From a virus, in UHGV virus genome UHGV-0848487: 40,883 nucleotides of DNA; one strand, written 5' to 3'. The notes beneath the pieces are model-generated. The model saw nothing but the letters and a program-made list of their open reading frames with translations. It did not search any database and was not told the DNA's origin. This document shows, piece by piece, positions 3,116 through 36,850 of the stretch (positions within the stretch are counted from its first letter, which is position 1; every line of letters begins with the position of its first letter). The translations under genes and the position numbers were made by a program.

Positions 3116-4120
3116 TTACCGGTCTGCGTCGGCGATTGCCAGAGTACCGAGGGTGTGCTTGTTCTCGGCAACAGCTTTGCCCCAGTTAGTCGCGGTGAAC
3201 AGTTCTGCGTCCAGCGGAGATTTACCGCCGTTGGTAACGTCCCAGCTGTAGCCTTTCAGTTTCAGGCCGAAGCTGTAGTCCGCCTGCCAGGTGGTCTGGA
3301 TGCGGGTGTTACCGTTGCTGGTGTCAATGTTGCTGATAATGTCAGAAGCATTATCAACGATGATGCCGTTCGCAACTACGGACAGAACCTTAGTCTTGTT
3401 CGGGCTGCCAGCTTCGTACGGAACCTTAGTCTTGTTCGGGCTGCCAGCTTCGTACAGCGCAGGGATGTCGGAAATTACGTAACGCTTGCCGAGAACATCG
3501 ACAACCATAACGTTGCCAGCAACGAACAACTGGTTTGCGTTGGTCAGCGCTTTGTCCACCAGAGTGTGGTAGGCCGCGCCGGTCATGATGTCAGTGACCA
3601 ACAACTGAGACTGGTCGCCGAATTTAGCGTGGCTGTTGTTCAGCACGTTCAGGGACAAGCCAGCGGTCGCGGATACATCGTTAACCAGTGCAGTCTGACC
3701 GGATACCGCGGCAACGGCGGCACCAACAGCGGTGTTAAGCTGGTCAGCTAACAGTGCGTCAGAGAACCCTTCGGAGATAGCACGAATCGCGCTCGCCGGG
3801 TCTTCGTTCAGCCAGGTCATTTGCGCAGGCTCGAACAGTACCGGTCCGAAGCCGCCAGCGACTTTAACGCCTACATGCTCGCCCTGAGTCAGCGCGGTAG
3901 CTGCCTGAGACGCGATAGTGGCGTAACGGTCAACGCGGCGTTTAGCGGAGGCAATCTGGTTAAAGAAAGACTCACGGGAGAAGTCACCGCGCCATGAAGC
4001 GGTAGACAGTACAATTGCGCCACCGGAGGCTGCGTTAAACTGGTCAGTTTTCTGGCCAAGCAGTTCGATAGTGGTACCGACGATATCGTCGTTATAAACC
4101 TTCATATCTGACAGAGACAT
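3116..4120 (-). CDS. major capsid protein
   Basis: 334 aa ORF following scaffold-like gene; followed by terminator; position in head module; contains 36-bp in-frame tandem duplication. Confidence 0.6.
   Translation of the reverse strand: MSLSDMKVYNDDIVGTTIELLGQKTDQFNAASGGAIVLSTASWRGDFSRESFFNQIASAKRRVDRYATIASQAATALTQGEHVGVKVAGGFGPVLFEPAQMTWLNEDPASAIRAISEGFSDALLADQLNTAVGAAVAAVSGQTALVNDVSATAGLSLNVLNNSHAKFGDQSQLLVTDIMTGAAYHTLVDKALTNANQLFVAGNVMVVDVLGKRYVISDIPALYEAGSPNKTKVPYEAGSPNKTKVLSVVANGIIVDNASDIISNIDTSNGNTRIQTTWQADYSFGLKLKGYSWDVTNGGKSPLDAELFTATNWGKAVAENKHTLGTLAIADADR
3384..3455. repeat. 36-bp tandem direct duplication (2 copies, 35/36 identical) inside capsid gene
   Basis: gaaccttagtcttgttcgggctgccagcttcgtacg repeated head-to-tail; encodes duplicated peptide YEAGSPNKTKVP. 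Confidence 0.9.
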
Positions 4121-15248: not shown

Positions 15249-15422
15249 TTATTGATGTGTTATGGAGTCGATGAATGCCAGTAACTCCCTTTCCGCTTCT
15301 GCCTCTCTTTCTTCAAGCGACCAGGTAGCGGATTCCTCTGTCGCCGTTGCTAAATCGGTTTTCGCATCAACCATCGTGTCGATTAACGTGATTAGTCGTT
15401 CAGCCTGTTCTTTAGTAATCAT
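15249..15422 (-). CDS. hypothetical protein (57 aa)
   Basis: ATG 15420-15422 after AGGAG; MITKEQAERLITLIDTMVDAKTDL...; the overlapping plus-strand Ser-rich ORF 15262..15483 is judged a shadow. Confidence 0.4.
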   Translation of the reverse strand: MITKEQAERLITLIDTMVDAKTDLATATEESATWSLEEREAEAERELLAFIDSITHQ

Positions 15423-15502
15423 TGTTGCATCTCCTGCAATAGTCGCTTCGATTGTTGCGTTTGATGAAAGTGTCGCCTTTTGACGACACTAAGTTAAAGT
15501 TG

Positions 15503-15757: not shown

Positions 15758-15905
15758 ACCTCACACCTCTTTCAATCAAGGATTGCACACCAGCTTTCCA
15801 CGCCCGCCACGCGAGACGCGTCTTAACGTTCAGGTACTCTTTCTTTGAACCCTTGTTAACCGGCAGACCCTCGACCACAGCCCACCGTTCAAATGCTTCT
15901 CTCAT
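15750..15905 (-). CDS. hypothetical protein (51 aa)
   Basis: ATG 15903-15905 overlapping upstream stop (ATGA); under track cutoff. Confidence 0.3.
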   Translation of the reverse strand: MREAFERWAVVEGLPVNKGSKKEYLNVKTRLAWRAWKAGVQSLIERGVRYG

Positions 15906-16090
15906 ACCAGAACCTCACATTCATCCCGATACGCGAACAATAACGACCCTTTGTACTCAATCATAAAACCATAATGGTTGATGCTGAACGCCGGAAAAAC
16001 ATCACCTACCGAGATACCGAAATCTATAAGCCTGCGGTCAGTTATACGGACAAGCCTGCGGTCAGTTATACGGATTCGCATTAACGGCAA
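15902..16090 (-). CDS. hypothetical protein (62 aa) containing a 24-bp in-frame tandem duplication
   Basis: ORF track; peptide RITDRRLV duplicated. Confidence 0.4.
   Translation of the reverse strand: MPLMRIRITDRRLVRITDRRLIDFGISVGDVFPAFSINHYGFMIEYKGSLLFAYRDECEVLV
16028..16075. repeat. 24-bp tandem direct duplication (2 copies, 23/24 identical)
   Basis: aagcctgcggtcagttatacgga repeated head-to-tail. Confidence 0.9.
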
Positions 16091-16284
16091 CCTCCCTCAG
16101 AGTCGTCGGCACAAGCATCACGATTCGATGCCGTTTTGATTGCCTGTAAGCTATTTAGCATTTGCTGGCTATCCATCGTAATAATTGTAATCCCGTCCGA
16201 TAAATGCACCTCGTAGCGTTCAGCTACGAAATATATTTCCTCGAAATCATGATGTTTCAGTTCTTCAAATAATTCTTCCATCAC
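16081..16284 (-). CDS. acidic hypothetical protein (67 aa)
   Basis: ORF track; early leftward operon. Confidence 0.4.
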   Translation of the reverse strand: MMEELFEELKHHDFEEIYFVAERYEVHLSDGITIITMDSQQMLNSLQAIKTASNRDACADDSEGGCR

Positions 16285-16472
16285 TTCGCCCCTTTGAATT
16301 TAAAATTGTTGCCAATGAGTTTTAAGTTCTCCTCTTCTACGTATATTTGTGAATTTACCCCTCTCACCTTTTGCACGGTCACTACGTACTCACCGGGAAA
16401 TAAATTAGATTTTAATTCAATTATGCCGTGTTCACCGTCGGCGCATTTAACCAACTGACCATTCTTAAACAT
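16281..16472 (-). CDS. hypothetical protein, first gene of leftward early operon
   Basis: Preferred ATG 16472 (MFKNGQLVKC) after AGGAG about 10 nt upstream. Confidence 0.4.
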   Translation of the reverse strand: MFKNGQLVKCADGEHGIIELKSNLFPGEYVVTVQKVRGVNSQIYVEEENLKLIGNNFKFKGAK

Positions 16473-16506
16473 AACCCTCACTCCTCTGTCTCGTTCCGAT
16501 AAGTGA

Positions 16507-16802: not shown

Positions 16803-16956
16803 AAGTACCCGAGACTTAAGAATGATGTTTCTAAGTAATTCTGAATTAAGGTCCTTCGATACATTGATTTTACAGCTACATTTTATTTTGTCAATAGGTT
16901 GTGTTTGGCTATTGTAGGTGTTATAGTTGTTTCACTTGATAAAGAGGGCACGTAAA

Positions 16957-20102: not shown

Positions 20103-20612
20103 ATGTTAGAGAAATTCTTAGTATTACTGGAACGTTTCGTAGTTGCGCATGAACTGATTGCTGCGAACAGCGCGAAACGACCGATGCCGTCAACTGAGTG
20201 TGTAGGTGAAATGCTTGTAGATGTATCGGTTACCGGAGAGGTGCTTGGAGTCGACCCAGGCACTGGCGTCGGGAAAGAAATCCCGGTCGAAGGCGAGGGC
20301 CTCGTTGACACTAAACCTGCGGAAGAAGAGAAGCCGAAACGCAAGCCGCGTAAAGCTAAAGTAGAGGAGCCAACGCCAGAGCCGGAAGAAGAGAAAGAAG
20401 AAGTCGATTACCAGTCTCTGCGCGACCAGATTCAGGCTATCGACGATGCGATTAACGAAGGCCCAAGCGATGCCGCGTGCGACGATTCTGACGAACTGCT
20501 GGAAGAGTTTACCGGTAAGAAGATGAAGATTGCAGCGATTAAAGACGAAGACCTGGCTGAGTATCTGGAGCGCCTGACAGCAATCAAGAACAAGTATTTC
20601 GAAGAAGAATAA
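20103..20612 (+). CDS. highly acidic hypothetical protein
   Basis: 169 aa, Glu/Asp-rich with short basic patch KPKRKPRKAK; GAGGAG RBS; first gene after strong promoter. Confidence 0.55.
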   Translation: MLEKFLVLLERFVVAHELIAANSAKRPMPSTECVGEMLVDVSVTGEVLGVDPGTGVGKEIPVEGEGLVDTKPAEEEKPKRKPRKAKVEEPTPEPEEEKEEVDYQSLRDQIQAIDDAINEGPSDAACDDSDELLEEFTGKKMKIAAIKDEDLAEYLERLTAIKNKYFEEE

Positions 20613-20619
20613 CTATCCC

Positions 20620-20638
20620 GCGGCCTTCGGGCCGCTTT
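20620..20638 (+). terminator. hairpin GCGGCC-ttcg-GGCCGC followed by TTT
   Basis: Directly after acidic protein gene. Confidence 0.45.
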
Positions 20639-20655
20639 AACTGAGGGTCGGGATT

Positions 20656-20928
20656 ATGATTTACCAACTATACCGCGCCGTTGACCGGCGGGATACCACA
20701 GAGGCGCTATGGTTATTGCGTGCGCCGTCCGGTGCGCACCAGATGGAAGAGATGGCGTACTTAGGCAAAGTACCGCTGTCTAAAGATATAGGCCGTCACG
20801 TGTCGCAGATTAAGCGCACGACATTCGCCAAGCCTGACTTTTATGTCTTTGAGTCGATGTACAGCTGGGCTATGCACTGCGACCATAAGACACGACATTT
20901 AATTGACCAGTGGGAGAGCAGGGTATGA
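20656..20928 (+). CDS. hypothetical protein (90 aa)
   Basis: ORF track; RBS GAGGG. Confidence 0.45.
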   Translation: MIYQLYRAVDRRDTTEALWLLRAPSGAHQMEEMAYLGKVPLSKDIGRHVSQIKRTTFAKPDFYVFESMYSWAMHCDHKTRHLIDQWESRV

Positions 20929-34577: not shown

Positions 34578-36850
34578 TACTTGAACCCCGGCGCGTTTCT
34601 TGTGGCCTTGCGGGCCTTGCTAATCTTACTGTTGCTGTTCTGCAAAGAGGCCGCCACTTGCTCTTCAATGATGATACGCAAACGGCCTTCATCATCTTGT
34701 TCAGTGGATACGTTGCCAATCTGAGAACTCGTGTTGTTTACGATGGTAACATTAGACGGTCCGGAAGAAGACCCGTTTTGCCCCATAATTTCTTTCATCT
34801 GCTGCGCGGTGCGAACACGCGATGCCCCCGCGGGCATGATAACCTCAGGTTTACCACGTTCGGCGATGGTGGAAGCCTGCCCCGCGGATAACTGACCGCC
34901 CTGTTCACGCGCAGATCTGATAGCGGAAATCTGCGCCATACCCGCCCCAACGGCAGCGGCGGCGGCTACAGGTGCCAGGAACGGACCGACTACAGGGATA
35001 GCTGCCGTGGACTTGTACGCCTCAATAGCTGCGGTGTATGTGGCTATAGTGGCCTGTACGATAGCGAATGCCTTATACGCACCAGAAGCCTCGCCCAAAG
35101 CCGAACCGATGTTTGAGGCCATGTTACCAAAGGCGGTTGCCGTCGCGTCGGCGCGTTTCGTGGCGTACTGCTCGTTGATGGCGTTAAGAGCGGCCTGATA
35201 CTGCTTCTCGCTAATCAAACCCTGCTCGCGGTACTTATCCGCTACCGCCAGTTTCTGCTGTTCCTGGATGTCGAGAAGCTCAAGCTCAGTAGCGTTCTGA
35301 CCCATAATCTGAGCCATGAAGTCGTCACCTTTCTGCTGCTTTTCCTGGGCTTCTTTCTGGCGTTTATCCAGTTCATCTTGTCGTTTTTTCCCGGCTTCGA
35401 GGACGATAGCTGTTTTAGCTTGTTCATATTCTTTCAGGGACAACGCGCCCTGGCTGTAGAACTCTTTTGCCTTAGCCAGTTTCTGCTGTTCCTGCGCGTC
35501 GATAGCCTTTAACTCGTCGTTGTTCTGACGGGCCAAAGTGTCGAGGTAATCTTGCGCCTGATTCCGCAATTGCTCTGCTTTCTTGGCGGCGGCTTTTGCT
35601 GCTTTATCGTCGGTTGTCCCCACCCCACCAGTTCCGCCCTTTTTATTAACAAGGCTGGCTAAGTCTATTTCTTGCTTCTTACGCTCGTTGTACTGCTTGC
35701 GCTGTTCCTCAATTTCTTTCTTACGCTGCTTAGACCTGTTGGTGATGGCCTGTGATTCGGCCTCGGCGCGTTTTATGCTGGCGGCGTATGCGGCGTCAGC
35801 TTCTGCGGTCAGGTTTTTAAATGTGAGTGCTGCCGTTTTGCTCGGATCAAACACGTCTGCGAGGGTCTGACCTAACGCTACGGCGTAATCGTCAATGCGC
35901 TGGAACCACGCAATAACCTCGTGAAACGTCTGCTGGATGTCAGGCAACCATTCACGGATAGCATCCGGTATAGTACCCAGCGAGTCTGACATATCCGCGG
36001 ATTTGTCCTCGGTATCGTATGCCAGGTCGTTTAAGGCATCAGAAATAAACTTGAATGATTCATTGAACAGTGTCACCCAATCCTGGAGCGTGGCGGCTAT
36101 CTCATTAGACGCAATGGCGTCGGTGAGTGCCGAAATAGCGTCTTCTGCCTTCGCGGCTTGCTCACCTACGGCGTCGCCGAAACCGGATTGCGCCACCGCA
36201 AGTACAAGGCCATCAAAGGAGTCCGCCAGGCTCGACAACTGACCGTCTAACGTCTTAGAGCGCGTCTCCATCGCCCCGGCGAAATCGGTGTTGCCGATGT
36301 TTAGCAGGTATTTCTGAATCTCTTCGGAGTTCTTTTTAACCGTGGTGGTGACGCCGCGGAACGTGAACGAAACGGTATCTGCCTGTTGGGAAGACTTGAT
36401 ACCGAACTCTTTCAGTCGCTCAAACTCAAAGGTACTGGCGTCGGCAACCGCCTCAATCATCTGATTAAGGTCTTTACCCATAGCCGCCGCGGTGTTGCCG
36501 TAGGAGATTAACGCCTCTTTGCTTGGGTTCAGGCCGAGGGCCACCAGCTTAGTAAAGCCTTCCACCGCCTGGTTAAGACCATATGGGGTTTCTTTTGCGA
36601 ACTGTTGCAGGACGCTGAAAGCCTTAGCCGCGTTCTCAGCGCTCCCGGTCATTGTGATGAGGCCGGAGTTCAGCTTATCGAAGTTGCGCTGGGAGTCCAC
36701 CAGCGCACTGAACACCTGTTTGGCAGTTTCCAGACTGACAACGGCAGCGGCGGCGGCCCCCGCGGCTTTGGTAAGCCCGTTCAGTTGTGATGTGGTTTTA
36801 TCGACGCCGGTCGATGATACTCGTACGATCAAGCTAGCGGTATCAGCCAT
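34577..36850 (-). CDS. tail tape measure protein
   Basis: About 757 aa, Ala/Gln/Lys/Glu-rich coiled-coil with Gly-rich C-terminal region; preferred ATG 36850. Confidence 0.8.
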   Translation of the reverse strand: MADTASLIVRVSSTGVDKTTSQLNGLTKAAGAAAAAVVSLETAKQVFSALVDSQRNFDKLNSGLITMTGSAENAAKAFSVLQQFAKETPYGLNQAVEGFTKLVALGLNPSKEALISYGNTAAAMGKDLNQMIEAVADASTFEFERLKEFGIKSSQQADTVSFTFRGVTTTVKKNSEEIQKYLLNIGNTDFAGAMETRSKTLDGQLSSLADSFDGLVLAVAQSGFGDAVGEQAAKAEDAISALTDAIASNEIAATLQDWVTLFNESFKFISDALNDLAYDTEDKSADMSDSLGTIPDAIREWLPDIQQTFHEVIAWFQRIDDYAVALGQTLADVFDPSKTAALTFKNLTAEADAAYAASIKRAEAESQAITNRSKQRKKEIEEQRKQYNERKKQEIDLASLVNKKGGTGGVGTTDDKAAKAAAKKAEQLRNQAQDYLDTLARQNNDELKAIDAQEQQKLAKAKEFYSQGALSLKEYEQAKTAIVLEAGKKRQDELDKRQKEAQEKQQKGDDFMAQIMGQNATELELLDIQEQQKLAVADKYREQGLISEKQYQAALNAINEQYATKRADATATAFGNMASNIGSALGEASGAYKAFAIVQATIATYTAAIEAYKSTAAIPVVGPFLAPVAAAAAVGAGMAQISAIRSAREQGGQLSAGQASTIAERGKPEVIMPAGASRVRTAQQMKEIMGQNGSSSGPSNVTIVNNTSSQIGNVSTEQDDEGRLRIIIEEQVAASLQNSNSKISKARKATRNAPGFK

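Follow-up and report, generated by a model that had tools for sequence, protein, structure and literature searches.

In-frame tandem repeats whose copy number varies (VNTRs), through slipped-strand mispairing or a RecA-independent misalignment of direct repeats, are well known in the genes of bacteria and phages. Their copies are perfect and stand head to tail, their units are a multiple of three so that the reading frame is kept, and their copy number differs among very close relatives, changing faster than substitutions do. The repeat described here, in a small gene of Kagunavirus phages, shares all of these traits. It departs from the known VNTRs in its small range (one to three copies) and its long unit (24 bp), and in lying within a small early protein of cytoplasmic type rather than a surface protein; nor is there any sign that it switches a gene on and off or that a phenotype is selected. 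Little beyond the repeat itself should be needed for it to vary: a perfect 24-bp tandem repeat is expected to change copy number fast, through slipped misalignment or unequal exchange.

A second described system with which the locus invites comparison is the origin of phage lambda, whose iterons lie inside gene O. There too an open reading frame in an early or replication neighborhood contains direct repeats some 20 bp long. Unlike those of lambda, the Kagunavirus repeat is not within a replication initiator gene.

At the level of protein, the locus may be compared with the FeoA domain (PF04023) and the FeoA-type, SH3-like domain at the C terminus of DtxR-family repressors such as ScaR. Both are small SH3-like barrels, as the phage protein is predicted to be, and the phage motif L..hG[IV].VGD.F resembles the rrL.elGl.pG..v of FeoA. 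SH3 domains and bacterial SH3b domains possess a variable RT loop, which in SH3 domains borders the ligand-binding groove. The phage protein shows 4-19% identity to such domains and no detectable sequence relationship with them, and unlike them it stands alone, at a length of 51-67 aa.

The window, that is, the whole stretch of 40,883 nucleotides analyzed here (UHGV virus genome UHGV-0848487), is a Kagunavirus (Guernseyvirinae, a K1G-like siphophage). The best match in a phage collection to its first 25 kb has 92% identity over 88%. Over the 1.2 kb surrounding the repeat, K1ind2, K1ind3, K1H, and K1G match along the full length at 93-95%, fTaEco01 and fKuEco01 at about 96% over 89%, and vB_EcoS-UTI89UKE1 at 98.9% over 81%.

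An initial annotation of the window had called a 24-bp in-frame tandem duplication at 16028-16075, and it is indeed there. Read directly, the letters give two 24-bp units, head to tail. TRF reports 16028..16074 with a period of 24, 2.0 copies, 100% matches, and a score of 94, and a repeat search finds a pair of 23-nt copies, at 16028-16050 and at 16052-16074, offset by 24 nt. Not one of 100 dinucleotide-preserving shuffles yielded any match to the 23-mer, and the window contains no third site for it when up to three mismatches are allowed. The sole mismatch between the two 24-nt units is at their final plus-strand base, C at 16051 and T at 16075; the former is polymorphic (C or T) across relatives. 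The annotation gave the duplicated peptide as RITDRRLV. It is in frame on the minus strand, where the units encode IRITDRRL and VRITDRRL, the same as RITDRRLV/RITDRRLI in another register. Comparison of single-copy with multi-copy sequences shows that the ancestral unit was flanked by a 2-bp microhomology, AT (ctAT|AAGCC...GGAT|tcgc), too short to be diagnostic. Features of the locus are collected in Table 1.

Table 1. Positions in the window of the repeat, its gene, and other features discussed in the text.
Feature	Position	Strand	Remarks
Repeat unit 1 (reading order)	16052..16075	-	ATC CGT ATA ACT GAC CGC AGG CTT = IRITDRRL, residues 3-10
Repeat unit 2 (reading order)	16028..16051	-	GTC CGT ATA ACT GAC CGC AGG CTT = VRITDRRL, residues 11-18
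AT dinucleotide before repeat	16026..16027		Same as last two bases (AT) of ancestral unit
Gene for 59-aa protein, predicted SH3-like small beta-barrel (phrog_30395)	15902..16081	-	Stop codon included
GGAGG, Shine-Dalgarno-like	16091..16095	-	9 nt upstream of ATG 16081; abuts TTG 16090
Promoter-like site, near-consensus	16894..16867	-	TTGACA-16-TAAAAT
36-bp tandem duplication	3385..3455		In major capsid gene 3116..4120 (minus strand)

The repeat had been placed in a 62-aa open reading frame, 15902..16090. A frame of that length can be drawn mechanically from a TTG, but the gene more probably begins at the ATG at 16081 and encodes a protein of 59 aa. The minus strand reads GGAGG-ttgccgtta-ATG CGA, followed by the two units and then ATA GAT. 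This ATG overlaps the stop codon of the upstream gene (TAATG), and the corresponding CDS is annotated as 180 bp in relatives. Because of the placement of GGAGG, the overlap, and the length of the CDS in relatives, the ATG is most likely where the gene starts, and the product is then MR-IRITDRRL-VRITDRRL-IDFGISVGDVFPAFSINHYGFMIEYKGSLLFAYRDECEVLV.

The gene sits within a series of short minus-strand open reading frames, and its neighbors are small phage proteins (DUF551, DUF7438, and unnamed PHROGs) of a phage operon. About 800 bp upstream of the gene, and some 600-850 bp from the repeat, is a divergent, promoter-like region, beyond which lie an HTH-like open reading frame and one of 761 aa whose counterpart in relatives is annotated as a helicase-primase. 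At 16-17 kb the window reaches its lowest G+C (0.417) and its minimum of cumulative GC skew, and both coincide with this divergent intergenic region. It is likely an early control region and possibly a replication origin, since low G+C and a skew minimum are what suggest that an origin may be near. The gene had been described as a small early gene. Small it is, and part of a leftward operon, while its being early is presumed from these surroundings; it is reasonable to suppose that the operon is expressed early.

The annotation had suggested comparison with homologs as a check on the duplication, and such comparison shows that the repeat is not private to the window: alleles of one, two, and three copies occur in independently sequenced Kagunavirus phages. 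The homologous stretch was read directly in 20 other loci, and further records were assigned by match spans. Sixteen genomes have a single copy, with T at the junction and a protein of 51 aa (G AB-2017, LF7074P1, LF7074P3, NTEC3, SCS92, EC3-1, BUCT825, phiEc3, K-01, K-02, fEg-Eco06, VIPECOMC04, VIPECOTH07, and three IMG/VR contigs). Two copies, and 59 aa, are found in nine, counting the window. Seven of these have the junction bases C,T (the window, K1ind2, K1ind3, fTaEco01, UTI89UKE1, MirsaeidiM_Esher4, and one IMG/VR contig) and two have T,T (fKuEco01 and fTaEco03). Three copies, and 67 aa, are found in three: K1G and K1H with T,T,T, and UTI-CM001 with C,C,T. The open reading frame is kept in every allele, the unit being a multiple of three, and each protein ends ...ECEVLV.

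Then there is the evidence from the DNA next to the repeat. Six genomes (K1H, K1G, UTI-CM001, fTaEco01, UTI89UKE1, and MirsaeidiM_Esher4) show no differences in the 330 bp that adjoin it, yet among them are three different repeat alleles. The single-copy phage G AB-2017 is two substitutions away from these six over the same 330 bp. Since three alleles lie on identical flanks, copy number shifts faster than nearby point substitutions accumulate. All multi-copy alleles have PAFSINHYG in common, where single-copy alleles have [LP]AFSSNHYG, and this fits one origin of the multi-copy alleles. The simplest history would be one duplication in one sub-lineage and one change of the junction from T to C, followed by at least two separate expansions from two copies to three, one of the T unit and one of the C unit. 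One carrier of the two-copy gene, contig IMGVR_UViG_3300045988_018086, has its structural region in common with P AB-2017 (KY295898) and a different early region; KY295898 lacks the unit, and the contig may be a mosaic relative.

I propose that the feature is a genuine and heritable in-frame VNTR of the slippage type, tolerated in a small gene of Kagunavirus, and consider this very probably correct. In one sub-lineage of the 51-aa protein a 24-bp duplication would have arisen once, the 2-bp AT microhomology being its possible seed. With two perfect 24-bp copies in place, misalignment by slippage as the phage replicates, or unequal recombination, became possible, and for that reason the array would then have expanded, and possibly contracted, repeatedly between two and three copies. 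Each unit would add eight residues ([I/V]RITDRRL) to a long loop that leads from strand 1 to a short helix: the first copy would form strand 1, the last copy would run on to the helix, and whatever lies between the two would loop out. The added length would be tolerated because loop length here is naturally variable across the family. The form of the repeat suggests slippage as the way in which it mutates, and copy number is assumed to be nearly neutral.

The protein family gives reason to think the added length tolerated. The window's protein matches phrog_30395 (E=5.2e-38), its residues 11-59 falling on positions 3-51 of a profile 51 positions long, the length of the single-copy form. Searched with a profile, 5.8 billion proteins yielded 107 homologs, most of them 63 aa, which read MRIRITDVDYVLPPGYGDHPLRYFGVSVGDEF.... 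In the alignment the loop between 'RIRIT' and 'L..FG' is longer by 12 residues in these 63-aa forms. It is precisely there that the 51-aa form is the shorter, and there that the repeat inserts its 8 or 16 residues. An internal tandem repeat is confined to the window-type cluster among 102 aligned representatives of the homologs. Of the matches in a search of the full profile library, only 13 reached E<=0.001, and the long ones made of multiple stretches looked spurious. Pfam gave no family for the window's protein at E<=1, a sequence search of the PDB with the family profile gave nothing meaningful (best E=0.52), and PADLOC, which annotates defense and anti-defense genes, matched neither the protein nor three of its neighbors.

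AlphaFold2 predicts the single-copy protein with high confidence (pLDDT 95.9) as strand 2-5, helix 8-13, and strands 20-26, 30-35, 38-43, and 47-50. The two-copy protein of the window (pLDDT 83.6) is predicted to have the same core, displaced by eight residues, with confidence lower only in residues 11-20 (mean 66). A BFVD model of a 59-aa two-copy sister protein superposes on the single-copy model at 0.8 A. The predicted barrel, of five strands with a long loop after strand 1, agrees in fold with solved SH3/SH3b domains. Judging from these models, the protein is an SH3-like small beta-barrel, and the repeat is a change of length in the loop that would correspond to the RT loop of SH3 domains.

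Some GenBank records label the protein 'FeoA family'. In a Foldseek comparison with the PDB, no match reached E<=0.001; the top one was the FeoA-type domain of ScaR (E=0.083), and the FeoA-like PA4359 stood at rank 17. FeoA was also the commonest sub-threshold Pfam match, found with 16 of 101 homologs (best E 0.0012), and neither those 16 nor the window's protein reached the gathering score of PF04023. An hhalign comparison with E. coli FeoA aligned the expected motif with a probability of only 2.7%. Neither feoB nor any metal-regulator context was found among the gene's neighbors, and a search of the literature for Kagunavirus together with FeoA gave nothing relevant, only one unrelated review. 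Membership in the FeoA family is not established, and the label reflects only a sub-threshold resemblance.

An alternative view is that changes in copy number are not neutral at all, that the repeat is a contingency-type locus in which they alter the length of the RT-like loop and hence the binding of a host or phage partner. Measured against the norm of 63 aa, 12 loop residues have been lost from the 51-aa form, and there might be selection for lengthening it. The 59- and 67-aa forms bracket that norm and come nearer to it than does the 51-aa form, the insertion lies precisely in the loop whose length varies in the family and whose counterpart borders the ligand groove in SH3 domains, and copy number has outpaced nearby substitutions through at least two independent expansions. 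Selection could explain the longer alleles equally well. But the range is just one to three copies, with single-copy alleles the most frequent, and K1-specific phages have alleles of one, two, and three copies, there being no known correlation of copy number with host, phenotype, or partner. As for the speed of change, mutation alone would be expected to provide it in a perfect 24-bp tandem repeat. The adaptive view is the foremost rival but an unlikely one, and no observation demands it.

Simple slippage followed by a random point mutation gives no specific reason for one observation, that the change from I to V occurs exactly at the new junction. The window contains a second, perfect tandem duplication, of 36 bp, in the major capsid gene (Table 1), which lengthens the product by 12 residues, YEAGSPNKTKV and a P at the junction. 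Both duplications have a lone mismatch exactly at the new junction (16051 and 3420), within the flanking microhomology: GGAC vs GGAT in the one case (I to V) and ACGG vs ACAG in the other (L to P), both transitions. The mismatches may be coincidence, or the result of selection specific to the junction, or errors made during the duplication event, in which case they could point to an error-prone template switch rather than simple slippage. A separate idea is that the repeat is a fast-mutating 'loop-length dial', in which recurrent eight-residue expansions are selected. If this were true, the dial would restore or retune the binding of a host target in a sub-lineage whose early protein had lost 12 residues of its RT-like loop. 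I regard such readings as a long shot.

The initial annotation took the two duplications as independent events in one genome. That cannot be upheld, in that the 24-bp duplication was inherited from an ancestor shared with phages of the K1G/K1H/K1ind type, while the 36-bp duplication is absent from all 21 relatives that match the capsid region (21/21). The two duplications are of very different age, and the 36-bp duplication, given its absence from those relatives, is either recent or, in principle, artefactual. The further suggestion, that duplication is active in this phage lineage, has fared better: there are alleles of one, two, and three copies, two three-copy alleles on identical flanks, and private duplications in sister genomes. 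G AB-2017 has a different tandem duplication, of 18 bp, overlapping the same capsid site (15416-15453), which makes at least two independent duplications of this loop of the capsid protein. The same phage has at 20612-20818 a duplication of 105 bp (97% match) in the gene of a 'putative structural protein', the CDS of which is 1599 bp as compared with 1494 bp in relatives. P AB-2017 has a perfect duplication of 79 bp, out of frame, in the spanin region (20520-20666), and K1H has an extra 9-bp copy (35630-35652) in its homolog of the upstream neighbor gene. The 105-, 79-, and 9-bp duplications in these sister genomes may be real or may be errors of assembly. Three other whole genomes showed no tandem duplications beyond the 24-bp repeat.

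Assembly must be considered for the 24-bp repeat as well, since assemblers can err in such a way as to yield short perfect tandem duplications, and the annotation had raised the prospect of a systematic assembly issue. If the second copy were a mis-assembly, the true genome would have one copy, and the presence in the same window of a 36-bp duplication that no matching relative shares might seem to favor this. It is too much to expect, however, that the same error was made in K1ind2, K1ind3, fTaEco01, UTI89UKE1, MirsaeidiM_Esher4, and an IMG/VR contig. These six records share with the window both the two-copy allele and the junction C, and as they come from different laboratories and years, an artefact is excluded for the 24-bp repeat. 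Three more genomes have three copies, and the duplication both keeps the reading frame and fits the fold that is predicted. It is highly improbable that the second copy is false.

Equally improbable is that the repeats serve as protein-binding sites, whether iterons of an origin or repeats of an operator, and fall within a coding region only by chance: they are only some 600-850 bp from the divergent region with its skew minimum and low G+C, a plausible neighborhood for an origin, but most relatives (the 16 genomes above) make do with one copy, the window offers no further copy even with three mismatches, single-copy relatives have synonymous substitutions inside the unit, and in many Kagunaviruses the body of the gene is swapped for a divergent paralog that does not have the unit. 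The iteron or operator reading was rejected on the strength of the single copy in most relatives and the lack of conservation of DNA beyond what coding requires. In NTEC3 and G AB-2017 the changes inside the unit are only synonymous (NTEC3, for example, has ATG AGA ATT CGA ATA instead of ATG CGA ATC CGT ATA), from which it follows that it is the protein, rather than the DNA, that is constrained. The RNA offers no more: predicted mRNA structure around the repeat, at the 5' end, is no better than that of shuffles (z=0.49), and no Rfam family occurs anywhere in the window.

The feature, then, is real biology and not an error of assembly, and it calls for no new mechanism. No description of the locus was found in the literature on tandem repeats in Kagunavirus, so the locus seems to be undescribed, though the kind of feature is well known. 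The alleles of the repeat form a convenient natural series (51, 59, and 67 aa) in which to test the effect of loop length in an SH3-like phage protein of very small size. Because it evolves fast, the repeat could also be used as a marker for typing strains of phages of the K1G/K1H/K1ind type, several of which are used or have been proposed for therapy against K1 E. coli. Of more immediate use, the start of the gene is corrected, to give a protein of 59 aa, and the 'FeoA family protein' label in GenBank is tempered.

The surroundings of the gene hold some further observations. In many Kagunaviruses the sole match to this region is a stretch of about 80 bp, 16062..16142, at about 87-94% identity. 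It takes in 20 nt at the start of the gene (MRIRITD) and about 60 nt at the end of the upstream gene (...DDSEGGCR), and in these phages the gene bodies on either side have been exchanged for divergent paralogs. The stretch has the look of a conserved linker at which modules of small genes recombine and are exchanged. Two positions upstream of the repeat gene, a gene for 66 aa (16281..16481, minus strand) has a weak Pfam match to the SH3 domain of the Dda helicase (SH3_14, E=0.048), and from this match it may be that the operon holds several SH3-like mini-proteins that look unrelated. In ST20 (329-765) both adjacent genes are of the same SH3-like type.
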